Assembly (NCBI RefSeq): GCF_015706575.1
Contig: NW_024037061.1
Location: 1,043,897 to 1,107,896 of the forward strand
Direction of reading: 5' to 3'
DNA from: Patiria miniata
Taxonomy: Eukaryota
DNA length: 64,000 bases
The notes under the pieces were generated by a model. It saw nothing but the letters and a program-made list of their open reading frames with translations, did not search any database and was not told the DNA's origin. Of the stretch, positions 12,264 through 46,553 are shown one piece after another; position 1 is the first letter of the stretch; the number at the start of each line of letters is the position of its first letter. Both the position numbers and the translations under genes were made by a program.

Positions 12264-12406
12264 AACCAATCGAGTTGCCAAAGCGCTCTGGTTGAAAGGG
12301 CAGTTATACATGTGATATATATTGACAATGGGTTTTTTTGCAATGCCATAACGACAACATTGACCAGCAGTTGAAAATCGCCATTTTTGACAGCTTCCAA
12401 GTTCCT

Positions 12407-17590: not shown

Positions 17591-19866
17591 ATATCAGCTA
17601 AAATAATAATCCTTGTTTAAAATTTATTGTCCCACCCTCCCCCTTCTTGCTACGCCCCTGTGGGGTCTGTCGTACAATTAATAGGTGCATAAAGAGCCTA
17701 CTTACATGTATCATCAGAAAGTCTTAGAGAGAATTCAGCTGTCTGATACATGTTCATTGACCCAATGTTTTCAACAGCTCATTGCCGGGATAATTAAAAC
17801 GGAAAAATGAATTAATCAAAATTCTTCAGATTCACTATCAGAAACTGACTCTGAGTGAAACAAGCTGGCGCATGCAGCTAAACATTCCTTCCTGTGAAAA
17901 CGACAGATTTTAATGACGCACAATTATGGAATAGGTCATGAAATAGTTTACACTGATTAGGGGTTGCAGTTGTAGGACATGTGAATGGACATGGACACAA
18001 CTTAAAGGGGCACTGCGTCCTGAAATTCCCAAAAATTTCATATGGATTGTTTACTTATCCTATTTCAAACATTTGGTTGAAAGGAAACCAACCTAATGTT
18101 TTACCGTTCCCGAGAAAATGGGGCAGTATTTGAAAAAAAAGGTCAGTTTTTTTTCCAACGATGGTCAGCCAACCATCATTGGAAATTGATTCCACTTTTC
18201 TTGAAAATGACAGCACACCAGGTGCCATGATTTGTCAGGATGCTTGAGACCATTATTCGTACTGTCAAGTAAAGTACCGGTACTTCAGAATAATTTGGTC
18301 ATTTTGTTTTTTGATGTTTGAAAATGTATTATTACCTTTAAACTCAGTGGCAGGGTAGCAAATCTGAGGTTGTTTCGATGCCCAGATAACTCCCATACAT
18401 GTGTACTGTTGTGTGAAATGATTAATCTTAACAGTCGACCACCTTCGTGTATGTGCAGCTGTCTTTCAATGCATTCCAAGGCCTGAAACTTTTGAGGTGT
18501 TAATGCAATCAAAATAAAATTAATGCATGAACAATTTATTGATTTGAGGCAGGTGAATTTTTTGTTGGTGTGCTTATGAATGCTTTATTTTTGTCTTTGG
18601 AATGTTTGCTGATTGAAGAATATCCCTGTTTGCAAATATTGATCTAGTTCTATCCGGTAATTAGTCTGGTTGACGTACTTTGGCCACTCGTTAAAATTTT
18701 CAATATTGACTCAACGTTTTTCGTTAGGAGAATAGTGAAATTTAAACAAACCCTTATTAGTAACGCACAAAACACCTCCAAAAAGAAGATAGAATAACAT
18801 TCAGAAGGACTGACATAAGATCCAAAAACGAACTTTTTCAAAGGCAAAATAAAAACAACTAACACGACTAGGCAAGCCTTACAAGTAATAAAGCTGGTCC
18901 CAGAGTCCACTATTCAATAGGGAGGATTCACATCACCACTAAACTGTCGCTAGAGGGCTAAAATCCAGAGAAAATTGCGCTGCATTTGTGGAAAAAAGTC
19001 AACATTGCGCGACTCCGTTACATGCAAATGTAGCGATCATGCACAGTTCTTAAAACTTAATTATACCTTGTTCACGCTTTCATTCAAATCTTGTAACTTA
19101 ACTCCCTCTTCTTGTTACTACATGGCATGTCACGATCATTCAAAAATTTCTTCAGTTCGTCGACTCACGTCGATATGTTCTTGCTGGATGTCTGCCGTCT
19201 TCAAAGCGCAGTAACATGTCGCGTAGGCCCTACCAATGTCCACCCGCTAGCCGGAAATGGACCTTTTTGGAAATAAACTTTGGGGCACACCGTATTCCGA
19301 ATCGCCTCTTTTTATTCAGAAGGTAAGAGGGTGGCCCTATATAATAGTATTGCGCGACTCTCTCCCCCACTAGTGTACAACCATTCTACAAATAAATCAA
19401 GAGTGAAAGTTACATGTAGTTTCATTCAGTCAGTCAGTCCGTTCGTCAATCAGTCACTGAGTCAGATAGACCTGTACAAAGAGGACAGTATGTAGGCTGG
19501 CCTTCTGGGACTAGCAACAACTTTTTAAAAAGACACAAATTGATTTGGTAGAATCTTCCCTTTGAAACAATTTGTAGAGTATGACCCTTTTTTTGGAATG
19601 ATTTGTAGACTTTTCCTCACATAGCCTGTTCTGTTTTTGTTTGTTTGCATGCCCAACAGATAGCGTCCAGTAACTGGACATGTTTTCAGCATCAACTTTT
19701 CAACATCAAGTTCACTAACCTGAAAGTGCAACACTAATTTGACCCCAAAGACATTCGCAAGATTGTCGTCAAACCAAGCAAGTGGCATGGTACGTGTAGT
19801 CCCCCGTCTCCAGGTACTTTGATAACAGTGCATGCTGATGTGAGCCCTTGACTAACAATAACCGCG

Positions 19867-23100: not shown

Positions 23101-26100
23101 TCCTTCATCGGAACCTCAACCCCAAGCCTGTCGCCCTACAAGGATCCAGACCAGGCCGCCTCCTCTTCCTCAAATCCGGACTCCGTCTTTGTTCTCCTGG
23201 AGGCCTCCCCGCCCAAGACGGATCGGCAGGGTCGCCTGAATCTGCGCAAGGTGGCCCGGGAGCGAGTCGTGAAGCTCTCCGGGCTGACCACTCCACTGGC
23301 GTGGAAATCAGGCGAGCCGTTTGGCATTCTGGTCCAGGCCTCTGCCAACAACTTTGGGCTGGTGGGCTCTGCCTATCTGGAAGGGGTGCTGGAGCTTGAC
23401 GACGGCCTGCTGGTAGAGCAGATAGTCTGTGAGTACATGTGAAACATTGTAGTGATTGGACCGATAGCATGTTGAATATGTTGAATAATAAACCAGCCAA
23501 GCATGTCAATCACGGGGGTTCCCCAGTCGCCACCCGCGATACGGCAGTCTTGTATGCAGTGTGAAACCGTGAAGTCGTGTCCCTCTCTGATGTGTGGCTG
23601 ACTCTGCGCTGCCTCACGACTCCGCGCTGCTATAGCTCTAGACTCCCATAGTACTGCTGTACTACAACATCAGGTTTGGCAAAGGTAGTGAGAGAGTGCA
23701 TGGGTGAGAGTTGTTAGTACCGGTAGGAGACTGTCTCAAAATTGAAAGCATACAAGGTTCATTCAGAATATAGTACAGTCTTGATGACATTTCACTGGTG
23801 AGATTATTTTGGATTTGTGATATAGAAAATGGCAAATTTCAGCTGTGACAGCTTACTCTGTGTACAATCATTTTTCAGGTGTTGATACAATTGGGGAGCC
23901 GTTCAACCTCGTCAATCAAGACCCCAAGACTCCTTCGCCTTCCCCCTTCCCACCCGGTTCCCCCTTCCACCGTTCTCCCTCCGGAAACAGCCTCCTCCAA
24001 AGATCAGGTTCGTCCAAAAAGGAGGTAAAACCGCTGCGCCGGAAACACTCTCAGGAATTCCTCAAGAAATTGGAGGAGCAGCATCAGAGAATTTCCCGCA
24101 AATCCTCGTCGGAGTCGAGCGACCTGGGTGGCATCTCGGTCGAAATGGCCGGTCAGGGACTAGATGATGAAGTACTGGTGGACATTGAAGGGAGTCCGAA
24201 ATTTCATCTAGGAGGAGCCACAATCGACGTTGGAGGCACATCCTCGGGAGATGCCAGCAATGTCTCAAGGAAGCCTCCCAATCTTCTTGTGTATACGGGA
24301 AGTGACGACACGGACAAATCCAGATACAAGTCCTCGGTGGCTTTTCTGGAGAAATTCCTGCACCGGGATCGCTATGTCATCTACCATTTGGAGCAAGAAC
24401 AAGCTTTGAAACATCCGTGGGCCGAAAACTGCAAGCTTCTTCTCCTAATGACGGGCAAAGAACCCATTCCCGAGAACACACTGAAGAAGTTTACCGATTA
24501 CGTTAAGAGTGGCGGATTTCTTTTCGTACTTGATGGCCAAAGTGCCAACTCTGAAACACCTGCGAGCGTGAGCGCTATTAAGTACTCGGAAATGCTCGGA
24601 GGGGAGATGCTGTCCTTTCAAGGCCTTTGTTCTGAGGATCCCCTAAAGAGGGACTTGTTTCCTGGGGGACAAATGAAGGTGCTGGCAGAGAGTCAAGGAA
24701 ACGCTGTCATTACCGAAACTTCCTTCAAAGGTAGCGCAGGAAAAATCATATCTTCTCAAGTAAGTCACTAAAATCTACATGTATCAATACACTTACATGT
24801 AGTATTCCGGAGTTTGCAAGTTCAAACCTCGCTCAATGCAATTTCTTTGTTCGAGCTTTAAATTACAAAAATGCATCATGTTTGTTGTCTTGTTGTGGTT
24901 CATTTGAAGATGTATATCATTGTATAACCAGTTCACGCCGGATGACTAGTATACCAGCAAATTGGTTTTGCGGTATTCGGAACAAATGACTGATAAACAC
25001 GCAGGGAGCGATGCCGGAAATATCTGTCAGAGACCCGCTCGTAGCGAGCAAGGTCGGGAATATGAGTGTGCTGCCCGAGGGTGATGGTTTCAACCCGCCT
25101 GGCTTGAGATCGCGTGAAAAGTAATCCCGCACCTCGTTCCGTTTTTGTCAAAATAATCCCGCGCCAACTGGTTAACATTTAGGAATAATTTTTTACATCT
25201 GTAATTGCGATATTTCCACATTGAAATGAAAAAAAAAAAGTTCAAATTTTTTGATGTCAAGATTTGGGCTGTGAGGTTGAACTAACATGTTCATGTAGTC
25301 ATGACTCATTCCCTGTACAATTTACAAGATGCATGCTCGTCATGTCATTCGTCACATTAGCATTTCAGTCCATGGAAACATGTGCATATGATTACTACCA
25401 GATAACGTGACACTGTGACGATATTAACAACTGCCCGTCTGAAGTTAGATTCCTATCTATCACATTTCAAAATGAGAAAAGAACATGTGATGCTGAGTCT
25501 CATTAGTGAACAGAACAAAAAACCACAAGGGAATGTGACCATGCTACATTGAACATTTGTTGACTGCTGTGATGTGGGTTATGGTGTTTTAACACCCAAG
25601 GGGCGCATAGCACCCGAAGCGAATTATGGAACAAAGTGATTGACTGGAGTGGGGTTTGAACCTGCGACCTCCGGATTGGTGTTCCGGTGCTCTACCAACT
25701 GAGCTATCCAGCCCAATGTTGGCAGTTACCTATTTTGTCAATGTCTTTGTTCAAGGGGCGCTAGTCAGAAGCCATGAACTATATGCCATGCATGTATCCA
25801 GGGATCACGCCCAAAGTCACGATGCTAGCAACATTAACAATGCTGCAAACCTGGAAAATATGTAGAAAACAGTGATCACTCAAAGAGGATACATCTTTTT
25901 ATTGCAAATATTCAAATAAACAACATTTTAATCAAATATGTGCATAAATTTTCATGTTTTTATGGTAACAGGTCCAGCTTCAACTCATCTCCCCAGAGAG
26001 TCTGGTTCCGGACACCGAAGCCTTTACTGAACTTAAACAGTCCAATGAGGTCCGACACCAGGTCATCTTTGACCTTCTGGGCCGGCTGGGGTTAAAGTGC

Positions 26101-29100
26101 GCGACCTCCGAGCTACCAGATCTGACTGCCGGCTACCTGCTTGGTGTTAATGAGGTAAAACTGAAAAAAATGCTGCTAAATTATGTTTTAGTTAAACATG
26201 GGGAAGGTATTTTAGAAAAATATCTGGTTGATTAAGTTTCAGAAAACTTGCATCAAACATGCAATACACTGTTTTGAAATAAATTAGAATAAAAAAAATT
26301 GACTAATTTCTTGCTTGGCTTTTCACTTTATTGATACATACCATCGTACACATTTCATCTTTTCATAATGTGTTACCCTCACATTTAAAAATGCCATACT
26401 ATTATTTTGTTAATTATTTTTTTCAACATTATTTTATCAGTGTCTATTCAATCAAGATTTAAAAAGAGGTCATTTTTCCTCCCTCTGGAAGTGACCCTTT
26501 TGATTCATTGCAGAAATTAGAAAATTATGGTATTAACAACAACACAGGAAAACATTACCGTTCTTGTGTAATAAGAATCTGCCTTCAAAGATTTTTTTTT
26601 ATTTTTCAAATATCTGAAGTACTTAAGAAGATTTTTTTTTATGTGTATGTTTGGTGAGAAAGTACACAAAGTATATTCTTACGGTAGGGACAATTGTAAT
26701 GATGAGAATACAGGATACCTTACAGATGCAGCTCTGACTAAAAGGCGCTTGTTAAATCACTATTTTGTCTGGTTATTTTATCAGGCAGTTTATAGTGGAA
26801 TCCGGCGACCAGAATTTGAAGTTTTTTCTGCGGTGGTGTCATGCTCACGCGCATGCTGCAGGCATTCTTAAAGACGAGGCGCACGCGCATTTTGGTATTC
26901 CTATTGGTTGAAGGCGCCTGGAGTGCATGTGTACTACCTGAGGGCGACTCGCGCGAGTCTGGTGCCACCGTAGAAAATTGCTGCCGCCTGATTTGTCTAT
27001 TGGCAATGTGGATCTCGTGTGAAAATGTAGATATTCGGGTCTGGCCGCATTTGTCACATTAACGTATATTGTTTCTCATGGTCCCTATTCGAACGACGGA
27101 TGTGAATCAAGTTTTAATATTTTACACTTCTGAAAAGATATCCATCTTTGTTTTATGATTGATGATGGTTGTGTCATCAAGTGACATTGTTTATCGCAGG
27201 GCAGGACCTCCATGGAATGCGGGCTAGCGCGATATGGGCGCGTGCAGGACTTGCGTTGACTTGTATGTGTATCACACGGAATGTGACGGTCTGCCAACAT
27301 GTAAAAATGACAAGAATCTGCGAATCCATTAATTTTTTTTTATCCTGACTGGCTGTAGTTTCTTTCAGTTTGTTTATCACTCATCAGAAAGCAATCCGTT
27401 TGATTTCTAGTCATGCAAGACACAAGATGAGTATTTATTTTTTTGACAGCTTGCCTGTACATAACTTCGAGCAGGTTTCGTATTCCATATATTCCACACA
27501 TGCACGGGCATCTGTTTGGAGCATGCTGTTTCTCCTGCTCACTTTGAGCTTAAATTACAAGTACATGTACATGTCGTGAAGAATACTTAGTCATATAGTT
27601 AAAGGGAATATACAACATTTACAAACATCGAAAAACAAAACTACCAAGTGTTTACGAAATACCTTACTAGGATGTTGGTAAATGACAGTCTAAAGCATCC
27701 TGTAAAGTTATGTCACCTGGTGTGAAGTCATTTTCAAGAAAATGGTATTTTTGTATACATTTCCAACGGTGGTCAGCCGACCACTATTGGAAAAACCTAA
27801 CTATTTTTCAACTATTGCTCCAAATTTACAAATGTTTTTTTCAGTCAAAATGTTGTTTGCTATTGGTTACATGTTCATGAATGGGTGCAGGCCAGCTAGA
27901 CTGGTTCCCTTACCTTACAATTTTCCAGCATCTATAAATTGATCCATTTTATTTTTACTGGAGTCAGGGAACCAGACTACTTGAGCTTTTTTGTTTTTCT
28001 TGGTTTTTCCAGCATTTTCGAACACAAAACTTCAAACATGTCAGTGTAACAATATTTGATCTATTATACTAACCCCTCAAATACCGTAGTTCATTTCTGA
28101 AAATTAGAGCAAACATTCCCTTTAAATGAAGCATGTGTCTACATGTGTTGAATCCAAACCCTGATATTTCAAATTGTTTGCTGTCACATGGATTTTAAAG
28201 TGTAAGAAATTCACATGGTTTAAGAATGTACAGTTGAATTTGCACACGACATGTATTTTTTTTTTTGGGTAGCTTTTATGTACCGGTACATGTACATGTA
28301 CATGTACATGATGTAGCTTTTTTTTTTGTTTTTTTGTTTTTTAATATCTACTATAATACATGAACATGTATGTTGGCTAGAAGTATACAATACATACATG
28401 TGCACTGCCTCACAATTAAAAATTGAATAAAAAAACTAGCTCCCTGTATTGCTCTTCTAAAGGGGCCACACGGGCAGATACAAGGGGGTGGTTTGGTGCA
28501 CCCCCCCCCCTTCCTCACCTTCCAGCTGGGCAAGTTAAAAAAAAATTAATAAAAAAACCCACCAAAATTCCTTAATTCTCCTGATTAACACCATCACTCA
28601 ATATTGCAAATCGTGATTCATTGCTTAACCCTAACCCCCTAGGCCCTTGTTGCTTACAACCATCCTCAATCCTCCAAAATCCTCCAAAATTTTGCAACTC
28701 TGCCTAAATTTTTCAAAATTGTCAGACAGTCCTGCCTCAAAATGCATTCATCCTCAATCCTCCAAAATCCTCCTCATCCCAAAACTTTGCACTCGTGTTT
28801 AAATGAAGGATAACCAATGCCAAATCCTTCAAAATCATCAGACAGTCCTGCCTCAAAATGCATTCATCCTCAATCCTCCAAAATCCTCTTGTGCTTCAAT
28901 CACCATTCATCCTCAATCCTCCAGAACCCTCATTTGATTCAATCACCATTCATCCTCGATCCTCTAGAATCCTCCAAAACCGCCAGGAGGATTTTGGAGG
29001 AGTGAGGTGGGTTAGGGTTAAGGCCTTTCAGTCTGTTTATGCATTGACGGCAACGTCTTGTCCACCCTTTCCCCCCCCCCCCTTGAAAAAAGTCAACACC

Positions 29101-32100
29101 CCAACCATCCCCTTTGGAACATCCTGGACCCTCACTGGGCCATTATTTACCCATTTTGACTTGGAGCGTGCTTCGGTGTATTTGACTCATGAATATTGAT
29201 ATTTCTTTCAATATGCAAATTGGAATACTGTATATTTTTTGGTTAATAGGCCTATGATTTTTTAATGCTTTAGATTTTTGTCTACTGAAAAAAATTTAAC
29301 ATTGCCTCTAATCAGGACTCAGAACTTTAAACAGACATCTATAAGACAAAGACTACAATGTGCCAGTACTGGTACCTAGGAAAGGTTTGCATGCACAATC
29401 TGAATATTGGACTTAAACAAATTGAAATCAATTTTCAAAACAAAAATTCCTTTTTTATATACAGCAAGTGGCAAGTGCCTTCTTGACGTCCATCCAGCCA
29501 AACCTTAAAGACAGTCAGCTGGCAAGTCGCTATCTCACTATGCAGTTTAACAGCGACCCGGACAAGGTCGGCCAAGCGACCCCCGACCTTCTGCCGGTCA
29601 TCACGGGTCAAAGTTCACCGCGGGGCGGAGCATTCGACTTCGAAGTTTACAAGAAACATTTGACTAGCAAGAGACTTGGGAATGTTGTGCTGTACACGGA
29701 GGTCGTTCCAACAACTATGGTTCTATTTGAAAGGTAAAGATATGTACATCCACACTAGTAGAGAGCTCTATTAAATGGAACTAGAGCTATATTAAATTCA
29801 TACACAGGCATGCAACTTTTCCTCGGATCAGCTGATTTCCTCTTTTTTTACTTCCCATGTGTTCCATTGAAAATAGAAAAACACTGTACAAAGTCTGGGA
29901 AAAATTTGAATTTCCTCTTTTTTTGTGATTTCCCAGTTGCATGCCTGCATACAATGTACGTTCATTCATTACTTTTACCGCAAGTTGAGAAAACAGAGTA
30001 ACAAGAGTATGGAAAACTCCAAAGTTTGTATAGTTTTTGTATCGCTTTTAGCATCTGGGTCTGTATTTGAAAATTGATTCATAAGTAAAGTCAATATGCC
30101 CAAAACCAAAAAGCACAATTAGTAAATTATTCCACTCTGTGATAGATGTAATACTTTTGATTTTACGGTCTTGTGAAACTGTACCCATATGCGTATTGAA
30201 TACAGCCGAAATGTTTTTTTTGGTGGAATTCGGAGTTTTCAGCTGTGAAATTCCATTACATGAATGTTCAACAGTCGCGTTCAAAATGTTCGCACCAAGA
30301 ACGTGTACAAGAGCGTTCAGCATAAAGGAATAAAGAGTTGGTGCTGTAGTCATTTCACTCGAATCGTGCTCAATCCAACAAGATTCTGCATAATTCAAAT
30401 GAACCCTCGACTCCTTACCTTGAGGGAAAGGGAAAATGTTGTCTCTTTTGCATGAAGCAGTAAACAGGTTCATCCATCATGGCTGCAATATTTGAAAACG
30501 CTGGTGACCCTTAGTAACCAGTTCACGTCGGACGACATACATGCAATGTTTTGCGGTATTCGGAACGCATGACGGATAAACACGCAACGAGCGAGGCTGG
30601 AAATATCTGTCAGCGACCCGCTTGCAGCGAGCGAGGCCGGAAATATCAGGGTGTGCTACCCACAGATGACGGCTTGAACCAGTCTGGCATCAAGGTTCGT
30701 TAAAACAATCCCTTGCTGGGTCTGGTCAATGTCAAAATAATCCCGGCGCAAACTGGTTAAGAACTTGTTTTTTCATAATTGCCATATCCTGTGCACTTAC
30801 ATTTGAGCTCATTTCAGTTCGCGTATCTTCATGCTACATTTTTTCAGAGGTTCACCTTGAATGACATTTTGTTGATTATTCCATACGATTTGACTATAGT
30901 ACAACCCATTTAAGTTAGCGCGATGGCACCAGTTATACCACCAAGCGCCAATGTAAGACGCGGCACAATTGTATACAGATGCATCATTGTCTTGATCGTA
31001 AGTGGTGAACGGCCAGCCATTGTGATACTCCAATGCATTACCAGCCGTACTCAGCTCAACGTATGCCTCAACGCGAAGAGTATACTTGTCTCCTTCGATG
31101 CGAAACTCGCCGTACTTGGCCCATGCCGTAGTGCCGTTCAGTGCCTCTAATTCGACCAGCAGCTCCCATCCGCACGCCAACTCCGTCAATTGACGTACCA
31201 TGTCGTTTCCCAGCCAGAACTCGCCGGCCAGGTCTCCGAACCCTGCTCGGTACACCGCCCAATTGCGGTAGAAGTTGACACTGCCGTCCTGACGTCGCTG
31301 AATGGTCACCCAGCCTCCTCCGTCGGTGGTCATGTCGCAGTAGGCCTGGAAGTTGCGTTGAGCTACGGTGAGGTTGTAAACCCCGCTCGCCCGTTCCCCA
31401 GCCTCAAACAAAGTCCTGCAGGTGACAGCATCAGGTACAGCCAGGAGATCGCTGCCATCGTAGTAGACGAACCCCAGCATCTGTTTGAAATCCCCGGGTT
31501 TTTGAGCCTGATCAGCATCATTCAAGACACACAACTGTCTGTGCGAGCAGTAATTGACTGAGTGACACCGAGGATCTGAATGACAGTCGCGTACGCAGAT
31601 TACGGACGACGCCGTCTTCCTCCATGCATAATCGCTGTATACAAGTCCGTGATTACTGGCAGCTCGAAAAATAGCTCCTAGATGCTTGCCACTGCCTCGT
31701 GGCAGAAGGACACTGACAACAAAAATCAAAAGTCTGACGGTAGTCGCCTCCCATTGTGTCTTTGGATACATGATTCTTATGCACCCGTAGTAATCAAAAG
31801 ACGTTGAAACTTAATTGATTCGAGTAAACTACCACAAGCCTGAAGCATTTGTTCAATATCCTTTGAAGCGCAGTGTACAAAAGGTTGTCGTTTCGCCGGT
31901 CCTCACTTTCTGGTGACCACAACCACACTGCGCCTTTCCTCGTACTGATATACACGTACATGCACCAACTAAAACTGACACAAGTCTGATTGGGTATGCA
32001 CACAGAGCGCTGAAGATATTGGGAGTGGGGTAATTACCCTGTACGGCTATCAATTTTGGTAGTGTAATATAAAAACTTGCAAAATTGCCAATTACGGTAA

Positions 32101-35100
32101 TTAGGCTCGGGTTGTTTTATAATATATCACGTGCCTGCTTGGAGCCGTGCAAGGTCTTTGGCCAATAAGTGAATATTTATTACAGGATGCTTTAATTAGT
32201 TGCCATTGTAACAAAGCCTCCTGCGATACAATTAAAGGGCGTCCCTTTTTATTTCTATGGCTCTCATATTTTATTTTTTGCCTTTGAAGTTCACCTAGGG
32301 TCGGTCAAGACAAAACAAAACTCTGAACAATAAAACAGAAATTGCAGTTGCAACCGTATAGATTGCTAAATTAAATGATCCCAAGTGCTATTGTCTCTAG
32401 TTTTGTTTTTCGCCATGAGTTTATTAGCAGTTGATCACTGAAAAGAATAATAAAAGCGTATTTGGCAAGATGTAGTTGACTTATATTGTATCTGCACCTA
32501 GCAGCTCACTAACGTCAGATGTTTTGGCCATAGTGATAGCCATGACATACCAGTAAAGTTTTACCATAGATTGACACCTAATATGATGAGAGGCAACATC
32601 CTCTCATCTTCTGAAATTCCACTAGTTGCTATACGTGTACGTCGTTCTTAGCAAAGCAAAATAATGTGGTATTATTAATAGCTTTTCAAATAACACCAAG
32701 CCTGGTTGCCTGAATTTTGTTTTATTATTTTTGTTTTTTTCGTTTGTAATTGTTTTATTTCTTAATGGGGTTCCAGACAGGTTCGACGGTAATGAAACAG
32801 TTTTTTTTTTCCTTGGGTTGGGATTCTAAAATAGGGTCAGCCGGAAATGAGAACCAGTTGAGCTTCAAAGATGTTGAAATTGAACTGATTTAAGAAAACT
32901 ACGGCAAACCTGATTTACTTGTTCAACATACATGTACGTGTATTAGCACAGTGCAATCACCACCACAGCGCACCAACTATTAAACTGACACAAGTCTGAT
33001 GGTATCTACACAGCACTGAAAAATACCTGAGTAGGATAATTAGACAGTGTGTGCATGTACATGTATATGGCCGTTAGCTTTTGGTAGTTTAATTTTAAAA
33101 AATAATGGAGGAAAGAGTAATCACCTTGAGACCGGGATTAAGCCTGTTTGGTCCATAGGTTATTGCCAATTAATTAGGCTCGAGCTTGTTTTAGTCGTAA
33201 ATTACGCGCCTGCTTGGAGCCGTGCAGGATTATTGGCCATCACAACAAGGCCTTTGGTGCAATTACTTTGGGATATAAGAAGATATTAAAGGGAATATAC
33301 AACATTTGCAAACATCAAAAAATAAAACTAACAAGTTTTTACAAAATACCTTACTAGTATGTTGGTAAATGACAGTCTCAAGTATCTTGTAAAATTATTG
33401 CACCTGCTGTGAAGTCATTTTCAAGAAAATTTTATTTTTGTAAACATTTCCAACGGTGGTCGGCCGACCAGCGTTGGAAAAACCTAACTATTTTTCAACT
33501 ACTGCTCCAAATTTACCTTTTTTTTTCAGTCCAAATTTTGTTTGCTATTGGTTACATGTTCATGAACGGGTGCAGGCCAGCTAGACTGGTTCCCTTGCCT
33601 TACAATTTTCCATCATCTATAAATTGATCCATTTTATCTTTTGTGGAGTCAGGGAACCAACTACCTGAACATTTTTGTTTTTCTTGGTTTTTCCAACCTT
33701 TACGAACACAAAACTTCAAAAATGTCAGTGTAACAATATTTGATCTATTATACATGTACTAACCCCTCAAATAGTTCATTTCTGAAAATTACAGCAAAAG
33801 CCAATGATGTACATTCCCTTTAAACGCTGCTGCGTGAATTTGATGAATTTAACAGATCCAAAACTCACATTTCCCCCTTTTTTGTACAGTTTGATGTTCA
33901 AGGTTCCAGGGGACGTCGGTGTTGTTGCTATAGCAACCCGCATGACAGCAGGAAAAGGTGAGAACGTAAATTCTTTGAGTAGCTGTTAACTGTTCCTTTG
34001 CCTTGTAAATTTTCCGTCTTTTGTTTTATGGTAAATTTGTAATTATTATTATTATTAATTATTTCTGGTAATGAAACTAAGGATTCTTCAAAAGCGCCTT
34101 AGGCACTGAAGCTCGCAAGCATGAATAAACCTTAGAAGACGATGAGAATTAATTACAGTTTTAGGTGGGAGGTAGACCCCAGAAGAATATTGGGGGGGGG
34201 GGGGGGGAACCGACGGAATCGGGCAGGGACTCAAATCCAACCTGGCGGGATTAGAGCTCGAATCACAGGGTGTAAACTGCAACTATTGCGAGCGTTATCT
34301 GTTGTGCGTTAAAATGCACATAACACGTGAAATCTGTTTTGGCTTTCCATGTAGCCTGGTGTTCAGTTTGATATTCCCCACAAATGGCATGCAAAACTTT
34401 TCTGTTTCATTGTCTGAGACGTTACTAAGTAATTGTAAAGTTGGTTACGGGTACCCGATCCGGTAATCTGGAACCGGTTCCTGACATCAGCGGTCGGGTA
34501 CTTGGGTATCGGTTCCGATGCACACCCTTAGTGTTAAGGTGTTATTTGTTTATGGAATCCATTTGTGATATTGTGTTAGGACGTGGTGGCAACAAGTGGC
34601 TAGGACCCATAGGCTGTGCCATGTTCTCCTTGCACGTGCGGATTCCCTTCGGTTCAGAGCTTGCCGACAAGCTCCCGTTCTTACAGCACATTGCTTCGGC
34701 TGCCGTTGTTGAGGCTGTCAGATCCATAAATGGCTATCAGGTAAGCTCTGCTTAACAGAATGCTAAGTAATTTTCTAAGCAGAATTGTTTTTTTTGTTGA
34801 GTGTCTGAACTTGAATATTACTGCAAGTTTTTGAGTACATTCGTTTTAAGAGCATGCTGAACATGGTTACAAGAATGTCTCAGAAAGGGTGAATAATGAA
34901 GAAGTACAAACAAGAACATTGGTTTAAGTGTTGGCTCTGAAACAGGCCCTTCGCGTGAAACATTTGCATGAGCATTCATAGATGTTCAACTATTTGTGTA
35001 TTGACTACGTATTTTTCAACAAGACAAACTCTCCAAATTGCGTCTAAAATTTGTGTGGACATTACAGGACATAGATCTGCGACTGAAGTGGCCCAACGAC

Positions 35101-37451
35101 ATCTACTACGGTGACAAGATGAAGCTAGGTGGAGTCATTGTCAATTCAAGTGCATTGGACAATGTGTTCCATGCAATTATTGGTAAGATCGCATCATGAT
35201 CACATGAGGGAAAAAAGTGGTAGGACTGTAACACTTGGTGAGTCTGTCATTGAAGAGACAGGCTTAACCCTAACCCCCTAGGCCCTTGTTGCTTACAACC
35301 ATCCTCAATCCTCCAAAATTTTCCAAAATTTTGCAACTCCGCCTAAATTTTTCAAAATTGTCAGACAGTCCTGCCTCAAAATGCATTCATCCTCAATCCT
35401 CCAAAATCCTCCTCATCCCAAAACTTTGCACTCGTGTTTAAATGAAGGATAACCAACGCCAAATCCTTCAAAATCATCAGACAGTCCTGCCTCAAAATGC
35501 ATTCATCCTCAATCCTCCAAAATCCTCTTGTGCTTCAATCACCATTCATCCTCAATCCTCCAAAATCCTCATGCGCTTCAATCACCATTCATCCTCAATC
35601 CTCCAGAATCCTCATTTGATTCAATCACCATTCATCCTCAATCCTCTAGAATCCTCCAAAACCGCCAGGAGGATTTTGGAGGAGTGAGGTGGGTTAGGGT
35701 TAATAAGAAAAATTATTCTAAAGATTAGTACATGAAAAACTCAGTGTTTGAAACAGTACGACGTCATCTCATTTATCTGGGATAAGTTGCAGACAGGTGT
35801 ATCTGCAATAGGCAAATTGTATCAGATAAGAAGAAGAAGACTTTTTTGGGGGGAGGATGGAGGCTAGTCATCCTTACATCTAGCTGAGAAGCTGAATTGT
35901 GAGGGACGCAGCTACAACGTGATCGAGCCGAAGGCATGTAAAGGTGCCTTAGGGAGTCACCATACGACCCATGTCTGACCACAGAGCACAGCCAGATCCA
36001 AAGTGTTGATTTTTGCAGAGGGAGGACAACCGGAGAGCCCGGAGAAAAACCCTGTACTCTACTCAAATATGGCCCAAGCCGGGAATCGAACCCGGGCCAC
36101 AGTGGTGAGAGACGAGCACTTTATGCTCTAGCCACCCGTGCCATCAGTGGCAAGAGTCTGAGATTAATTGAAATGTAGATTAATGTAGATTAATTTAAAA
36201 GTTAATTTGTCTTTCAATATTTGGTTTTGCCCTTCGCCAATGTAATTTGATGCCGTCTGAGAGTCCATACTTAATACACACGGACTCGAATCCATGACCT
36301 CCTGCTTACTAGTGCAGACATCTTTCTACTCAACCACAGAGCTTGCTGAGGTCGGCTGGCTGGTTCGAATGCGACTAATTTGTTCTGTCTTCCTAGGCTG
36401 TGGTTTCAATGTTGACAACAGCGACCCAACGATTTGCATCAACGACCTAATCCGGCTTCACAACAAGCAGACCAATGCAAACCTGGCGTTGTTGACCATA
36501 GAAGAGCTCATCGCGAGGACCATCAGCCAAATTGAAAGCATCATCCAGGTTTTCCAGAACAAAGGAGCAGAGCCATTTCTGGAGATGTACTATAGGAGAT
36601 GGTTGCACAGGTAAATATATGGGGTCAGAAGTGGGATTAAATTCAGATCTGGCGTTGTCGCCCCATGGTTTTCCAGAGGGAAGGGGCAGAGTCGTTTCTG
36701 GAGATGTAGTATAGAAGATGGCTGCATAGGTTAATATATGGGGTTAGAAGTAGGATTAAATTCAGATCTGGTCTTTGTATCAGGTGTTGTCGCCAAAGGT
36801 TTCCAGAGGGAAGGAGCTGAGTCATTTCTGGAGACTATAGTCATTTCTGGTACTATAGGAGGTGGTTGCATAGGTAGTTATTGGGGGTACGGTCAGAAGT
36901 GGGATTAAATTTAGACCTGGTCTTTGAATTAGGGGTTGCCGCCCAAGATGTCTAGAGGGAAAGAGCTGAGTACAAGTACAATAGGAGGTAGCACATGTAC
37001 GTATTTGGGGTCAGAAGTGGGATTAAATTAAGATGTGGTCTTTGTCGTGGGCGTTGAAGCCAATGCATAAAACCAAGCACTGTGTATAGGATTCACAGTG
37101 TTTGCACCATAGAGCTATAATCAAATAATAGAGCTCTTTAATTTGCACGCATTTGGAAATTGTTTTTTCTGAACTAAACATGTTCTTGAAATGCACACGC
37201 AAAGATGGAATACTGATCTACTGACTAATTCCTATATTCCAGTGTCTTAATGGCCCTTTCTTGTATTTGGCAGTGGCTGTAAGGTGCGTCTCGAGAACGA
37301 GTCCGGGCCTGAAGTAACAGTGGAAGGCTTAGACAGGTCTGGTTTCCTCTCGGTGAGAGACCAACAGGGGGCGCTTCGCAGCGTCCAACCCGACGGCAAC
37401 ACCTTTGACATGACCAAGAACCTGGTGCTGATGAAGGAGAGACGGGAGTGA
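19867..37451 (+). CDS. HLCS: Holocarboxylase synthetase / biotin-protein ligase gene, 10 coding exons: 19867-20127, 23071-23428, 23879-24759, 25972-26154, 29465-29733, 33890-33957, 34580-34740, 35068-35182, 36397-36610, 37274-37451.
   Basis: All junctions are GT-AG with continuous phase. Diagnostic BPL motifs: [19 protein letters not shown] (catalytic GRGxxxW loop), [44 protein letters not shown], and a C-terminal domain ending MKERRE*. The exon-3 segment [48 protein letters not shown] matches the conserved N-domain of human HLCS. AATAAA at 37662-37667. Confidence 0.85.
21230..21665. repeat. Minisatellite: about 5 tandem copies of an 88-90 bp unit (HLCS intron 1).
   Basis: Unit gagctcttaagtgattggccagttctgctcaaatgccccagactgcagaatctcattggtcaacagctgg..acctcattgat. 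Confidence 0.7.
23071..23428 (+). CDS. HLCS: HLCS exon 2 (low-complexity Ser/Pro-rich N-region).
   Basis: Acceptor tgtccaacag|. Donor T|gtgagt. GC-rich. Confidence 0.7.
23879..24759 (+). CDS. HLCS: HLCS exon 3 (large N-terminal domain exon).
   Basis: Acceptor tttttcag|. Donor CAA|gtaagt. ORF 23845..24771. Confidence 0.85.
24925..25175. mobile_element. MITE with TIR TAACCAGTT.../...AACTGGTTA, copy 1 (HLCS intron 3).
   Basis: taaccagttcacgccgg ... gcgccaactggttaa. 80-85% identical to 30515-30760. Confidence 0.5.
25641..25713 (-). tRNA. tRNA-like sequence (degenerate). Probably a tRNA pseudogene or a SINE head, not a functional tRNA.
   Basis: The reverse complement GGGCTGGATAGCTCAGTTGGTAGAGCACCGGAACACCAATCCGGAGGTCGCAGGTTCAAACCCCACTCCAGTCA has good D- and anticodon arms. 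Position 33 is C, and the acceptor and T stems are mismatched. Confidence 0.35.
25972..26154 (+). CDS. HLCS: HLCS exon 4.
   Basis: ggtaacag|GTCCAG ... AATGAG|gtaaaa. 61 codons. Confidence 0.85.
27599..28125. mobile_element. TTAA-flanked MITE family 2, copy 1 (TTAA|agggaatatacaac ... cattccct|TTAA).
   Basis: 11-bp TIR agggaatatac / attccct. Internal hairpin ccaacggtggtcagccgaccactattgg. In HLCS intron 4. Partial relatives at 2395-2470, 18000-18230 and 57395-57470. Confidence 0.55.
28625..29021. mobile_element. TTAA-flanked MITE family 1, copy B (TTAA|ccctaaccccctaggcc ... ggtgggttagggt|TTAA).
   Basis: TTAA at both boundaries. About 30-bp TIRs plus internal tandem sub-repeats. Located in HLCS intron 4. 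Confidence 0.6.
29465..29733 (+). CDS. HLCS: HLCS exon 5.
   Basis: tatatacag|CAAGTG ... GAAAG|gtaaag. Protein [19 protein letters not shown]. Confidence 0.85.
30515..30760. mobile_element. MITE with TIR TAACCAGTT.../...AACTGGTTA, copy 2 (HLCS intron 5, 50 bp from the FReD stop codon).
   Basis: taaccagttcacgtcgg ... ggcgcaaactggttaa. Confidence 0.5.
30809..31771 (-). CDS. Intronless fibrinogen-related domain (FReD) protein, 320 aa, with signal peptide and Cys-rich N-region. Nested antisense in HLCS intron 5.
   Basis: Single ORF with a real ATG. The C-terminal fibrinogen domain is unmistakable: [48 protein letters not shown] ... [42 protein letters not shown]. Confidence 0.85.
   Translation of the reverse strand: MYPKTQWEATTVRLLIFVVSVLLPRGSGKHLGAIFRAASNHGLVYSDYAWRKTASSVICVRDCHSDPRCHSVNYCSHRQLCVLNDADQAQKPGDFKQMLGFVYYDGSDLLAVPDAVTCRTLFEAGERASGVYNLTVAQRNFQAYCDMTTDGGGWVTIQRRQDGSVNFYRNWAVYRAGFGDLAGEFWLGNDMVRQLTELACGWELLVELEALNGTTAWAKYGEFRIEGDKYTLRVEAYVELSTAGNALEYHNGWPFTTYDQDNDASVYNCAASYIGAWWYNWCHRANLNGLYYSQIVWNNQQNVIQGEPLKKCSMKIRELK
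33286..33823. mobile_element. TTAA-flanked MITE family 2, copy 2.
   Basis: atatTTAAagggaatatac ... acattccctTTAAacg. Ends 66 bp upstream of the HLCS exon-6 acceptor. Confidence 0.55.
33890..33957 (+). CDS. HLCS: HLCS exon 6.
   Basis: tttgtacag| ... AAAAG|gtgaga. Protein [23 protein letters not shown]. Confidence 0.8.
34580..34740 (+). CDS. HLCS: HLCS exon 7 (catalytic GRGGNKW loop).
   Basis: tgtgttag| ... TATCAG|gtaagc. Confidence 0.9.
35068..35182 (+). CDS. HLCS: HLCS exon 8 (KWPNDIYY).
   Basis: attacag| ... ATTATTG|gtaaga. Confidence 0.9.
35264..35703. mobile_element. TTAA-flanked MITE family 1, copy C.
   Basis: ggcTTAAccctaacccc ... gggttagggTTAAtaag. Located in HLCS intron 8. Confidence 0.6.
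36069..36155 (-). mobile_element. tRNA-derived SINE fragment.
   Basis: The reverse complement carries a tRNA-like head with the B-box GGGTTCGATTCCCGG. Confidence 0.45.
36397..36610 (+). CDS. HLCS: HLCS exon 9 (GCGFNV).
   Basis: tcttcctag| ... CACAG|gtaaat. Confidence 0.9.
36590..37035 (+). repeat. Tandem array of about 4 units (about 125 bp each). It duplicates the 3' end of HLCS exon 9 plus its donor site and the start of the intron. Copies 2-4 are degenerate.
   Basis: ggagatgtactataggagatggttgcacaggtaaatatatggggtcagaagtgggattaaattcagatctgg is followed by ggagatgtagtatagaagatggctgcataggttaatatatggggttagaagtaggattaaattcagatctgg and two more decayed units. Confidence 0.65.
37274..37451 (+). 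CDS. HLCS: HLCS exon 10 (C-terminal domain, stop TGA).
   Basis: tatttggcag| ... TGA at 37449-37451. Confidence 0.9.
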
Positions 37452-44200: not shown

Positions 44201-46553
44201 GTACCACATTTGATACCCTGCGAACTTAATCCGCCTGTAATAGTATCGCTCAGAATATAACAATCATTAATAGGGAAAGAAAGTATAGTATCCAGACGCC
44301 ACTTCTTCGGTCATGTACCAAGTCTATGGAGAATTAAGAAACTTTTCTCTAAATAAGTATTTCCTAACAAAATTTGAAAGGTTTCTCAGTCCCAGATTCA
44401 TGTCGTCTTAATTTTCAACATTTTTGCAATGACTGACCTTCATTGAGATGATATATGAAGGAAACAGAGGCGTCAGGTTGCAACATTCCTTCCACTAGTA
44501 GAACTTTGACGTCAGGTATACACTTACCGGCTGAATGAGAATCACGTCCGAAGTGTTGAACTTGAAGGTAACTTTTGAATTGGAAGACCAATTAACATTT
44601 TAAAACTTTGTTCAGGTGTTGGAGCTGTAATGACCGTATCGCCAAGCATGATCATGATCTCACACTACTTCAAGAGACGCTACGTATTGGCCAATGGGCT
44701 AGCTGTGCTTGGACTGAACGTTGGTCAGATGGTCTTCCCGCCCTTAATCCGTCTCCTGGTCGTCAGCTACGGGTGGAGGGGCGCCATGTTTATCATTGGA
44801 GCGTTGCAGTTGCACGGGGTTGCCGCTTGCGCCCTCTTCCGGCCGCTCAAGGCCAGCCTCAGTAAAACCCCTCAGCACGAAGACATTGGAACTAGTAATA
44901 AAGAAAGAACCAATTCAGCCAACGCTTTTCTAGAGTATCTTAGATGCTTCCAGATCTTCGCGAACGTCAAAGCGATGTTAGTTCTGATCTCCAACAGTTT
45001 GCACTCAATGGCGATAATGGTAAACCTTATTCATCTACCGGAGCGGTCGAGGGAAGCTGGCTGGTCGCGTGACCAGAGCGCCATGTTGGTTTTCGTCTAC
45101 GGTCTGGTATCCGTAGTCACGCGCTCCACCCACGGTTGGTTCGTGGACAGGAACCACATTGGCTCCTTCAAGCTCCAGTTGCTGGTGATTCTCGGGGCGA
45201 CTGTCACTTCTTCCTTGAACCCCGTGTCGGACAGCTACGTTTTCTTGGTCGGCTACACTGTCGTTTTGGGAGCTTTCCTCGGTGCATCCACTCCTCTGTT
45301 GATCGTGAACATGAAGAATGTTGCCAGTGCGTCGCAGGTGCCGGCTGCTCTGAGTTTGGTATGGGCTTCCATATACCTCTTCAATGGCATTGGATCGGTT
45401 GTTGCTGGTGAGTACGCATATTTTATAGGCCTACATTGTAATAACAGTTGAATGTTCACATGGTAAATTCCTCTATACGATTATCTCCTGACGATGGGCA
45501 GGGCGCATTGTTCGAAACATTCAGTTTCTGCCTTTTTAATCGTCACAACATCAATTTTATTCAATTCAATTCAATTCAATTTAATTCAATCAATTCAATT
45601 CAATTCTGTTTATTGTCTACGTTAAAAACATAGAAATTTGATGCCCACTGACAAATCTGATAACACACTTAAAAACCACACACTAATTCACAGATAACCA
45701 AACAATACAATTAAATACTAATGTACCACGTGTTTCTAAAAGAGAAAATCCACGTTAAACAGTATATGTTAATTCCCAATAAAAACTACTTTATCTTCAT
45801 GATAGACCACAAGAAAAAGAGAAAAACAGGCTAAGAAGTATTAAAAAGAGATTTCTTGTAACATAGTGCATAAAATTAAGTTACCCTTATCTACGTGTTC
45901 ACATTATGTTGAAGACCAAACTCCATCGAGTTTTTAAGCAGATATGCTTAGCATGTTTTGGGCCATGCAAAAATCACTGGGGATCGACCAGTCTTAAGCA
46001 GCATACATAGCATGGCATTCGGCTAGTAACCTGTATTTTCTAAACCAGTATATGTTCAACACATAACACATTACTGTGCTATTAAGCTCCAAGATATTGA
46101 CCGCAAGTTATAATGCGCATGTGTGACGTTTAGACTTGAAAGACTTTTTATCTTGAAAGGCAAACATTTGGGAAAAAACACCCAATGGTGAATGTCCCAA
46201 TACCACTTTTTCCACTGTCAAGATGATCAAGATCACAATTCTTCTCAGTCATTGAAGTCAATTTATTTTTCATTTGGTGTAATTTTGCTGCAAAAGAAAG
46301 GTGCGTACACGACCTATTGGTTACTTTCGAGTGTTGTTTTGCATTTTCAGGTAAGATCTACGACGCCACTGGGAATTACGTAGCGCCTTTCCTGACGAGT
46401 GGTGCGATGTTTCTGTCCGCGTTTCTCGTTTTTGCTATAGTGACATTCATGAAGCGGAGAGAAGACAGGACGCAAGACAAAAACAAGATGAACACCTCGG
46501 GCGCTTTACGGTACCATACTGCGGCCGACGGCTTGGAGGAAAATAGTCTCTGA
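41040..46553 (+). CDS. Monocarboxylate transporter (SLC16 / MCT family) gene, 4 coding exons: 41040-41230, 43582-43722, 44616-45407, 46351-46553.
   Basis: N-terminal signature DGGWAWVVLLGAHVG..YTEWKEVFE..ASWLVSMPM (compare MCT1 DGGWGWAVVIGAF..FFKEIE..VSWISSIML). Also YFKRRYVLANGLAVLGLNVGQMVFPPLI and GWRGAMFIIGALQLHGV. All junctions are GT-AG (T|gtaagt, tcag|GC, ttcag|GT, G|gtgagt, tttcag|GT) with continuous phase. TGA at 46551-46553. Confidence 0.85.
41331..41570 (+). mobile_element. tRNA-derived SINE (MCT intron 1).
   Basis: Head gcttggcgtagcggtac...gacccgggttcgattcctgcc. Confidence 0.5.
42079..42246. mobile_element. Perfect palindromic foldback element, arms about 78 bp (MCT intron 1).
   Basis: gggaataaatgtgtgttcggtcagtattaaacactctgtttaagaccggtttgagtctggatgggcgataattaccc | tcggcttcgcctcg | exact reverse complement. 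Confidence 0.55.
42289..42558. mobile_element. Short element with 12-bp TIR (catgggcgtcgc / gcgacgcccatg). It encloses several G10-14 / C10-14 homopolymer tracts arranged as inverted pairs.
   Basis: Sequence read directly. A related G/C-tract block sits at 8250-8640. Confidence 0.4.
42722..43010 (+). mobile_element. tRNA-derived SINE (MCT intron 1).
   Basis: Head gcgctcgcctctcagcaaggtgaccacggttcgaatcctggcc. Confidence 0.5.
43582..43722 (+). CDS. MCT-like exon 2.
   Basis: Protein CFFVGVLASRVGIRRVSMLGAAVTGLATILGSKTSHIGQLYVCNGLL. Donor G|gtgagt. Confidence 0.8.
44616..45407 (+). CDS. MCT-like exon 3.
   Basis: ORF 44630..45451. Donor GCTG|gtgagt. Confidence 0.85.
46351..46553 (+). CDS. MCT-like exon 4 (C-terminal tail, stop).
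   Basis: Acceptor ttttgcattttcag|. ORF 46317..46553. Confidence 0.8.

Follow-up and report, generated by a model that had tools for sequence, protein, structure and literature searches.

Results

A single-exon fibrinogen-related gene in an intron of HLCS

The window, by which we mean the whole stretch of 64,000 nucleotides of Patiria miniata DNA that was analysed, carries on its reverse strand, at 30809-31771, an open reading frame of 963 nt that extends from an ATG to a TGA and encodes, in a single exon, a protein of 320 aa. The ORF list, Pfam, PDB sequence matches and an AF2 model characterize the product as a PAN/apple and fibrinogen-related domain (FReD) protein. The gene lies within an intron of HLCS that spans 4156 bp on the forward strand (29734-33889), as defined by its splice junctions and the spliced peptide; HLCS exon A (29465-29733, forward strand; ORF list and splice reading) precedes this intron, and HLCS exon B (33890-33957, forward strand; splice reading and spliced peptide) follows it. 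Exon A ends in a donor site (AG/gtaaag) at 29733/29734, exon B begins after an acceptor site (tgtacag/) at 33889/33890 and ends in a further donor site (G/gtgaga), and exon C starts at about 34571. The reading frame is continuous across exons A and B, and the spliced peptide, which aligns with HLCS proteins and matches the Pfam families BPL_LplA_LipB and BPL_N, is a biotin-protein ligase (HLCS). Only two coding exons can be detected upstream of exon A, and the host intron, labelled intron 5 in the first-pass annotation, is thus at least the third coding intron of the gene. The first-pass annotation had placed a complete FReD ORF antisense in a 4.1-kb HLCS intron; its coordinates, strand and length for the ORF were exact, and the length of the intron fits.

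With regard to the host gene, the best annotated match to a 334-aa HLCS query was approximately 53-56% identical (approximately 53% for Branchiostoma HLCS), and this query returned no echinoderm orthologue. A 166-aa spliced HLCS query matched only two short ENA fragments, one of which led to a distant orthologue on an ENA contig (L001); the intron between exons A and B of this orthologue is 1.55 kb long and holds no FReD, and a blastn comparison between L001 and the complete window aligned exons only, with no intronic conservation. No further FReD copy or fragment was found by tblastn within the 64-kb window. An Rfam search over the window returned one tRNA-like element, located elsewhere, and a scan for sigma-70 promoters and terminators, which is irrelevant to a eukaryotic locus, found nothing.

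Nested antisense genes in metazoan introns are likewise complete, independently promoted genes on the opposite strand of a larger housekeeping gene, and compared with such genes in general there is nothing distinctive about the FReD/HLCS arrangement. Antisense nesting also recurs among the closest relatives of the gene, since two PAN-FReD genes of Asterias amurensis lie antisense inside a gene for a 9617-aa protein. The location in HLCS is not shared; of the paralogues examined in its subclade, none is in HLCS.

Domain architecture and predicted fold of the product

The N-terminus of the protein (aa 1-27; 31691-31771, reverse strand) contains, by inspection, R13, a hydrophobic core of 10 residues and then PRGSG; aa 6-21 were modelled by AF2 as a helix, and the hydrophobic N-termini of paralogues align with this region. 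The N-terminus thus resembles a signal peptide, which suggests that the product may be secreted. The next segment matches PAN_1 at aa 50-105 (31457-31624, reverse strand) with an E-value of 7.6e-08 and 32.5 bits against a gathering cut-off of 21.4; this PAN/apple domain, also delimited by pLDDT and by invariant alignment columns, includes Cys59, Cys63, Cys69 and Cys81, all four of which are invariant in the alignment of the PAN-FReD family. The first-pass annotation had noted a Cys-rich N-region, which is indeed present, but had not recognized it as a PAN/apple domain.

Fibrinogen_C (PF00147) was matched at aa 118-304 with an E-value of 6.4e-59 and a score of 199.9 bits (cut-off 22), covering positions 5-200 of the 221 in the profile, and alignments extend the FReD to aa 118-317 (30821-31420, reverse strand), including YDQDND and the C-terminal motif LKKCSMKIR, which is common to the window protein and the family. 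In an alignment of 65 sequences, Cys118 and Cys145 were invariant and Cys269 and Cys282 nearly so, and the window protein has all four; from known structures we infer that these cysteines form two disulfide pairings, one in the A-subdomain and one in the P-subdomain. PDB sequence matches comprised ficolins (including ficolin-3), tenascins and FIBCD1, with E-values down to 8e-53 (2j5z). The AF2 model had a mean pLDDT of 75.5, with values of about 90 for the PAN domain and 81-93 for the FReD core and with lower confidence for the P subdomain; its best Foldseek matches were recognition domains of ficolins (E approximately 6e-18, TMt 0.76-0.82).

Vertebrate ficolins (H-, L- and M-ficolin), FIBCD1 and tachylectin-5A (TL5A) thus provide the best FReD matches in both sequence and fold (2j5z, E=8e-53; TMt approximately 0.8), and the window protein shares with them both disulfides, the DxDxD region of the Ca site and the Cys-His of the pocket. 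The Ca-site motif YDQDND and the Cys-His, which the structural literature assigns to the acetyl-binding pocket in the FReDs of ficolins, FIBCD1 and tachylectin-5A, are both kept in the alignments. By contrast, the pocket-forming loop, which in FIBCD1 and TL5A carries Tyr-Ala, is largely deleted, and Q replaces W300. This shortened P-subdomain loop (NLNG to IVW; 30884-30907, reverse strand) was delineated by alignment, a loop-length census and lower pLDDT (57-73 across the loop); in the census, which covered 134 FReD domains, it measured 5 residues between the motifs as compared with a mode of 13, and one other domain was equally short. The loop is hypervariable across the PAN-FReD family. We also weighed whether a frameshift had removed the canonical GIxWxxWKG motif and dismissed this, as by inspection the other frames hold a stop or unrelated sequence.

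Ficolins also differ from the window protein in their collagen-like stalk, in place of which the window protein has an N-terminal PAN/apple domain; Pfam gave no match to Collagen (PF01391) in the window protein. The absence of the collagen domain rules out a ficolin label in the strict sense, and with the stalk absent and the pocket loop mostly missing, the ligand specificity of ficolins is not transferable to this protein.

The gene belongs to a large sea-star PAN-FReD family

A word-index search with the window protein yielded 822 matches, the best of which were PAN and FReD proteins of 325-350 aa from P. miniata, Asterias rubens and A. amurensis. An exhaustive HMMER search retrieved 14,224 relatives, among which every named full-length match was a sea-star protein, including proteins of Acanthaster planci. 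The closest relatives are dozens of PAN-FReD paralogues of approximately 325-350 aa from Patiria, Asterias and Acanthaster, with identities of 40-50% (at most approximately 50%). The paralogues of A. rubens, A. amurensis, P. miniata and A. planci have the same order of signal peptide, PAN_1 and Fibrinogen_C as the window protein and a similar length (325-350 aa versus 320 aa), and they likewise have the invariant cysteines, a C-terminal LKKCSMKIR and a single-exon coding sequence; they occur as tandem clusters as well as dispersed singletons, some of them antisense within other genes. Compared with these paralogues, the window protein has a loop after NLNG that is about 8 residues shorter, the substitution W300Q and an extra cysteine, Cys200. 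These paralogues carry automatic names such as "ryncolin-1-like", "ficolin-2/3-like", "microfibril-associated glycoprotein 4-like" and "techylectin-5B-like". Among the open-access papers covered, we found neither a description of the PAN-FReD architecture in sea stars nor functional data for the sea-star family.

A neighbor-joining (NJ) tree, which is a distance tree only and carries no support values, placed the window gene inside the family, in a group with P0007, P0063, P0032 and P0072 that is separate from both outgroups (P0020, P0037); the window gene had the longest branch. At columns conserved in the family, the window protein kept 80 of 95 residues (84%, versus a family median of 96%), with departures that include W300Q, G200C (the extra cysteine), R205L and D210A. 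As judged by these alignments, the window protein is the most divergent member of the family. Nucleotide identities to paralogues at codon positions 1, 2 and 3 were 0.60, 0.67 and 0.36, respectively; given that divergence is concentrated at third positions, that the frame of 320 codons is open and that 80 of the 95 conserved columns are kept, the gene looks selectively maintained.

An analogy with amphioxus had been drawn in the first-pass annotation; it was not supported, as the closest family is the PAN-FReD family of sea stars and HLCS is only approximately 53% identical to Branchiostoma HLCS. An amphioxus origin was rejected on the same two grounds. In the data at hand, the PAN-FReD family appears as an expansion within Asteroidea. 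Lineage-specific expansions of FREP or FReD genes with variable N-terminal partners are also found in other invertebrates (Biomphalaria, oyster, sea cucumber and brittle star), where PAN/apple partners occur in some molluscs, occasional members are single-exon, and links to immunity and regeneration have been made (PMC7588048, PMC5638244, PMC11310086). In particular, echinoderm expansions of FREPs and ficolins are induced in regeneration (PMC5638244, PMC11310086), and molluscs have both PAN/apple-FReD combinations and single-exon FREPs (PMC7588048). Snail FREPs, however, combine IgSF and FReD domains and are mostly multi-exonic, whereas the family of the window gene combines PAN and FReD domains and is uniformly single-exon.

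Intronless structure does not point to retroposition

The first-pass annotation took the intronless structure of the gene as a sign of retroposition. This would make the gene a recent reverse-transcribed copy of the mRNA of an intron-containing FReD parent, inserted in the HLCS intron, as single-exon FREPs of Biomphalaria have been interpreted (PMC7588048); a single-exon coding sequence at a site unrelated to other FReD genes and a short A6 run 35 nt after the stop codon are in line with it. However, all nine paralogues examined were uninterrupted (gene span equal to 3 x (aa + 1) nt); these came from A. rubens, A. amurensis and one ENA contig and included the subclade of the window gene, with Patiria P0007 and P0027 left out. 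Hence there is no intron loss to account for, and the single-exon state of the window copy carries no information on recent retroposition. On these sequences, intronlessness is ancestral to the PAN-FReD family, and the intron-containing parent that a phylogeny had been proposed to reveal was not found among the nine relatives.

The poly(A) remnants or TSDs that had been suggested as traces of an insertion were not found in the flanks of the ORF. The A6 run is the longest A-tract past the stop codon and is preceded by no poly(A) signal; a search for TSDs in the flanks recovered as the longest common word a 9-mer (approximately 0.5 expected by chance) with no adjoining A-tract. Neither AATAAA nor ATTAAA occurs within 1.5 kb downstream of the stop, whether or not the MITE that lies there is excised in silico; the chance of finding no poly(A) signal in that stretch is approximately 0.08 from background, and such a signal is likewise absent within 900 nt in two of the nine paralogues. 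Moreover, with identities of at most about 50% to every known protein, the window copy is not recent. We therefore regard a recent retrogene as very unlikely; RNA copying of a parent that was already intronless would be indistinguishable from DNA-level duplication on these data.

Two unrelated MITEs flank the gene

Two MITEs had been described as bracketing the gene, and both are real, exceed chance expectation and have further copies in the window. The first (30515-30760; approximately 245 bp) has TIRs of 17 nt (TAACCAGTTYRCGYCGG) and a TA TSD, as in Tc1/mariner- or Stowaway-like elements, and was recognized by its inverted repeat, its copies and a TIR scan; it starts 49 nt beyond the FReD stop codon, where 50 bp had been claimed. 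A second, end-to-end copy that is 76% identical lies in another HLCS intron (24925-25175), and further TIR matches at 56368/56761 contribute to a total of 7 in the window, compared with 0.6 expected. The second MITE (33286-33823; approximately 538 bp), recognized by its inverted repeat and copies, has TIRs of 24 nt (AGGGAAT...ATTCCCT) and a TTAA TSD, as in piggyBac-like elements; it lies 1.5 kb upstream of the FReD ATG, with HLCS exon B following after 66 nt, and it has a 90% identical copy in another HLCS intron (27599-28125) as well as a partial copy at 18119-18341. Each family thus has 2-3 copies in the window. An apparent duplication between 31962-32164 and 32970-33239 consists of two short aligned blocks only, with no further copies in the window.

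The presence of two genuine MITEs in the same intron, one on each side of the ORF, could be read as a Pack-MITE-like event, in which the flanking elements captured or duplicated the FReD gene, and MITE-associated duplication had indeed been proposed in the first-pass annotation. However, the two elements belong to separate superfamilies (TA versus TTAA) with different TIRs, both are complete and have their own TSDs, and for each an ordinary copy that carries no cargo exists elsewhere. The TIR scan detected no TIR of the first family upstream of the ORF (between 31772 and 33889), and the second MITE is 1.5 kb from the ATG. As no matching pair of TIRs encloses the gene, MITE-mediated duplication is unsupported; with at least 5-6 MITE copies per 64 kb, chance proximity is unremarkable, and the occurrence of both families in further introns of HLCS within the window indicates that the proximity reflects MITE density. 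Mobilization of the gene by these MITEs is thus effectively refuted and exceedingly improbable, and both elements are unrelated bystanders of the FReD gene.

Discussion

We consider it probable that this ORF represents an intact nuclear gene, that its product is a secreted, lectin-like protein of two domains, and that the gene belongs to the single-exon PAN-FReD family of sea stars and lies in the HLCS intron as a dispersed copy, with the MITEs being later and independent. In this large family, whose members are intronless throughout, it counts as an ordinary dispersed copy. Its origin may be explained by a parent that was already intronless and gave rise to a copy which landed in, or was duplicated into, the 4.16-kb HLCS intron in antisense orientation; this event would be old enough for marks at the junctions (poly(A), TSD or flanking homology) to have disappeared, and the two MITEs would have inserted later, independently of each other, into the same intron.

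A different account of the same ORF, which we regard as unlikely although it deserves more weight than retroposition or mobilization by MITEs, is that of a transcriptionally silent or decaying copy, i.e., a young pseudogene, unprocessed or dispersed, in which no disabling mutation has arisen so far. Such a copy could explain why the 1.5 kb downstream lack a canonical poly(A) signal and a MITE has inserted 49 nt after the stop, why the only TATA-like motif of the gene is at -350, and why the exact 320-aa product has no record in the public gene and transcript index; the lowest agreement at family-invariant sites, the loss of a conserved Trp (W300Q) and the deletion of 8 residues in a loop at the putative ligand site would also fit decay. 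On the other hand, the frame of 963 nt has remained open despite more than 50% protein divergence from all relatives, nucleotide divergence falls mostly at third codon positions, and no structural cysteine has been lost, nor has the Ca-site motif; the short loop belongs to a region that is hypervariable family-wide and in which an equally short version occurs, and a missing database record is to be expected for a species without annotation, HLCS likewise having no close match. As a separate observation, the signals for 3' processing may have been cut off from the ORF by the MITE that sits 49 nt past the stop.

If the ORF is an intact gene, as we favor, its product would, as its domains suggest, be secreted. 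The P-subdomain of the FReD, beside the Ca2+ site, may bind to microbes or damaged tissue through acetylated or carbohydrate ligands, and the PAN domain may provide a second protein- or carbohydrate-binding surface that replaces the collagen stalk of ficolins; the protein could serve as a humoral factor in recognition or in the wound response. We infer this proposal, including secretion, ligand class, expression and a role in immunity or regeneration, from the domains and from general knowledge of ficolins, tachylectin-5, FIBCD1 and invertebrate FREPs.

More speculatively, sea stars might possess, in their single-exon PAN-FReD genes, an undescribed and fast-diversifying recognition repertoire that spreads as compact intronless units and repeatedly enters introns of unrelated genes. 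The window copy, with its extreme 8-residue deletion in the pocket loop and W300Q, would then be not a decaying but a neofunctionalized member whose ligand specificity is new. We hold this broader reading to be doubtful; the hints toward it are the hypervariable pocket loop and young tandem pairs in the family, in which divergence is nearly equal across the three codon positions.

As one more member, unannotated and divergent to an unusual degree, the gene would enlarge a type of lineage-specific FReD expansion that is already known from echinoderms; its importance lies mainly in annotation. Antisense intronic single-exon genes of this type may be missed by gene finders, automatic names such as "ficolin-like" and "ryncolin-like" mask a distinct PAN-FReD architecture, and an intronless state and intronic nesting are habits of the family rather than marks of recent retroposition. 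For comparative immunologists, the hypervariability of the pocket loop and the quick protein evolution in young duplicates could be of interest with regard to the recognition repertoires of echinoderms.

An intronless PAN-FReD gene nested in HLCS

The minus-strand ORF at 30809-31771 comprises 320 codons from ATG to TGA in the ORF list, and Pfam places a Fibrinogen_C domain (the fibrinogen-related domain, FReD) at aa 118-304 (E=6.4e-59) of its product, as the first-pass annotation had it in coordinates, length, and identity. The N-terminal region, described there only as Cys-rich, is indeed present and is a PAN/apple domain (PAN_1, aa 50-105, E=7.6e-08, exceeding the curated cut-off). With an N-terminus that from R13 is signal-peptide-like as judged by inspection, domain assignment shows the gene to code for a PAN plus FReD protein with a predicted secretory-type N-terminus. 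In an AlphaFold2 model built with 64 relatives as input, pLDDT was about 90 for the PAN domain, 81-93 for the FReD core, and weaker, at 57-73, for the P subdomain; fitted onto ficolin recognition domains, the model reaches a target-normalised TM of about 0.8, and in sequence the protein comes closest, among solved structures, to the recognition domains of ficolin-3, tenascin-R, ficolin-1/2, and FIBCD1. Its cysteine count is odd, at 11, so that one of them may be free or engaged in an intermolecular bond; Cys312 is typical of the family, Cys75 also occurs in P0007, a Patiria member of the subclade, and Cys200 is peculiar to this protein, the family having Gly at that site.

The plus-strand host gene, encoding holocarboxylase synthetase (HLCS), was traced from two detected upstream coding exons (about 24250-24771 and 25969-26175) through exon A, ending at 29733 (donor AG/GTAAAG), exon B at 33890-33957 (acceptor TGTACAG/, donor G/GTGAGA), and exon C, starting at about 34571 by splice reading, to exons at about 35065-35187, 36396-36610, and 37251-37445, the last of which closes with a stop. 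The 334-aa spliced C-terminal half has its matches among the biotin-protein ligase / holocarboxylase synthetase proteins of Branchiostoma, vertebrates, Lottia, and Nematostella, at about 50-56% identity, and contains BPL_LplA_LipB; BPL_N lies in one upstream exon. The A-B intron that hosts the FReD gene (29734-33889) measures 4156 bp, in agreement with the 4.1 kb first reported; the two coding exons detected upstream of exon A make it at least the third coding intron, against the fifth in the first-pass annotation. The large 5' coding exon (23845-24771, plus strand) encodes a Ser/Pro-rich N-terminal extension before the BPL_N domain, and a short Branchiostoma HLCS isoform aligns with this exon only from about 24253 on. 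Downstream of the HLCS stop (about 37445), a large plus-strand exon at 44630-45451 with a Major Facilitator Superfamily segment (Pfam MFS_1, E=1e-19) represents an adjacent transporter gene. A minus-strand tRNA-like element at 25641-25713 in an HLCS intron, called as tRNA-Gly with anticodon ACC (Rfam 54 bits; ARAGORN), has C in place of U at anticodon-loop position 33; ACC is an unusual Gly anticodon in eukaryotes, and the element is probably a tRNA pseudogene or a tRNA-derived SINE head.

Two unrelated MITE families flank the gene

Both intronic elements proved to be members of genuine MITE families, with terminal inverted repeats (TIRs), their own target site duplications (TSDs), and further copies in the window. 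MITE1 (30515-30760), 49 nt past the FReD stop, has 17-nt TIRs and TA on both sides; a second full copy at 24925-25175, also flanked by TA, has ends that coincide to the base, and a scan for the family-1 TIR pattern gave 7 matches where 0.6 were expected. A possible third, diverged copy (56368-56761) retains both TIRs, about 394 bp apart. MITE2 (33286-33823) has 24-nt TIRs starting AGGGAAT within TTAA duplications, with copies at 27599-28125 (90% identical) and, in part, at 18119-18341. MITE insertions in the 64 kb number at least five or six, most of them in or near HLCS introns.

That the gene is bracketed by MITEs is therefore literally true and mechanistically empty: MITE1, with its TA TSD (Tc1/mariner- or Stowaway-like), and MITE2, with its TTAA TSD (piggyBac-like), are of different superfamilies, both are complete elements with TSDs of their own, and both families also occur in other HLCS introns. 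The TIR pattern scan found no family-1 TIR between the FReD ORF and exon B; no matching TIR pair thus surrounds the gene, which argues against the proposed MITE-associated duplication.

Intronlessness is a family trait

Retroposition, the other proposed origin, fares no better. For nine of nine relatives (A. rubens P0005, P0008, P0032, and P0072; A. amurensis P0015 with its neighbour, and P0063; two genes on an ENA contig), a set that takes in the subclade of the window gene itself, gene length is 3x(aa+1) nt and the translation is uninterrupted. Intronlessness is thus, judging from these sequences, a family trait, and the absence of introns is uninformative on how or when the window copy arose. 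The poly(A) remnants and TSDs that retroposition might have left were sought in the flanks: the sole A-run in the 500 nt past the stop is an A6 at +35, and the 150 nt following the stop (MITE excised) have no word longer than a 9-mer in common with the 900 nt preceding the ATG, where about 0.5 such matches are expected by chance. No AATAAA or ATTAAA occurs within 1.5 kb past the stop, with MITE1 left in or excised; given a background of 1.69 per kb per strand (P(0) about 0.08), this is mildly unusual, and among the nine paralogues a signal lies within about 520 nt in seven and none appears before about 940 nt in two. About 1 kb upstream of the 5' flank (31962-32164) lies a diverged, patchy direct duplicate of it (32970-33239), aligning in two blocks, one of about 45 nt and one of about 80 nt, that are 80-87% identical, amid short palindromic CATGTACATGTAT-type repeats and no other copies in the window.

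The relatives' loci include tandem pairs or clusters (L004, L005, L006) and singletons between unrelated genes (L003, L007, L008). At L004 (A. amurensis CP134970.1), a tandem single-exon PAN-FReD pair (10001-11035 and 12861-13847) lies antisense inside a giant gene with a 9617-aa product; antisense intronic nesting thus recurs in this family in another species. None of the relatives' loci is in HLCS, and the single HLCS orthologue retrieved (L001, on an ENA contig; exon C 83% and exon A 36% identical) has an A-B intron of 1.55 kb without any FReD, so that the HLCS location appears to be lineage-specific, although the species compared is a distant one. The B-C intron is about 3.5 kb in L001 vs about 0.6 kb in the window, indicating that HLCS intron sizes vary widely between lineages. 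A reverse-transcriptase (RVT_1) ORF occupies 1-1038 of that contig (ERZ25070167), about 4 kb before the HLCS exons.

A sea-star family and its divergent member

A word-index search with the window protein gave 822 matches, headed, among full-length sequences, by PAN+FReD proteins 325-350 aa long from Patiria miniata, Asterias rubens, and A. amurensis; each of these genomes has dozens of paralogues, which are 40-49% identical. When 1.84 billion representatives were searched exhaustively with HMMER, 14,224 FReD relatives were returned, with identity nowhere exceeding about 56%; the named full-length matches, which now included Acanthaster planci, were again from sea stars only. The earlier analogy with amphioxus finds no support in these relatives, and HLCS, 53% identical to its amphioxus counterpart, shows that amphioxus is not the source of the window; of the first-pass annotation, then, the nesting, the FReD identity, and the MITEs stand, and the retroposed or MITE-mediated origin and this analogy lack support. 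Aligned relatives have the same architecture and share with the window protein the four invariant cysteines of the PAN domain, the two cysteine pairs of the FReD, the YDQDND region of the calcium site, and the C-terminal motif (S/P)LKKCSMKIR, which is specific to the family. A neighbour-joining tree places the window protein inside the family, with P0007, P0063, P0032, and P0072, on the longest branch. We found no description of a sea-star PAN-FReD family in the literature searched.

We predict, with reasonable though not strong confidence, that the gene is functional and expressed. Its 963-nt frame is open despite >50% protein divergence from every known relative, and identity to paralogues at codon positions 1, 2, and 3 is 0.59-0.64, 0.63-0.68, and 0.35-0.41, a signature of long-term purifying selection. 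These observations, together with the retention of all structural cysteines and a GC content of 0.51 in the ORF vs 0.38 in the remaining intron, speak against a silent or decaying copy, which we consider rather unlikely even though, of the 95 columns conserved in the family, the protein matches only 80 (84%, vs a median of 96%), with W300Q, G200C, R205L, and D210A among the substitutions. Also in keeping with decay are the missing poly(A) signal, the MITE so close to the stop, an exact look-up in a public gene and transcript index that found no expression record for the product, and a loop between NLNG and the IxW strand of 5 residues vs a mode of 13 (one of 134 FReD domains is equally short). 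This loop, which carries pocket residues in FIBCD1 and tachylectin-5A, is hypervariable among paralogues. In young paralogue pairs (L004; L005 7078-8115 / 12202-13185, ENA; L002/L003, A. rubens), codon-position identities are 0.84/0.90/0.84, 0.94/0.94/0.90, and 0.79/0.81/0.70, and such near-equal values indicate high dN/dS, implying that protein evolution after duplication may be fast or positively selected.

Lacking a collagen domain, the window protein is, strictly speaking, no ficolin. By analogy with ficolin, TL5A, and FIBCD1 biochemistry and invertebrate FREP biology, a functional product would be secreted, its FReD P subdomain would bind acetylated or glycan ligands near the Ca2+ site, and its PAN domain could replace the collagen stalk as a second binding or oligomerisation surface. 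It may act in humoral recognition or in wound/regeneration responses, as reported for the expanded FREP/ficolin families of a sea cucumber and a brittle star (PMC5638244, PMC11310086); for molluscs, single-exon FREPs and the pairing of PAN/apple with FReD are both on record (PMC7588048). The window gene adds a divergent new member to a gene family of a known kind, in a genomic arrangement that is common.
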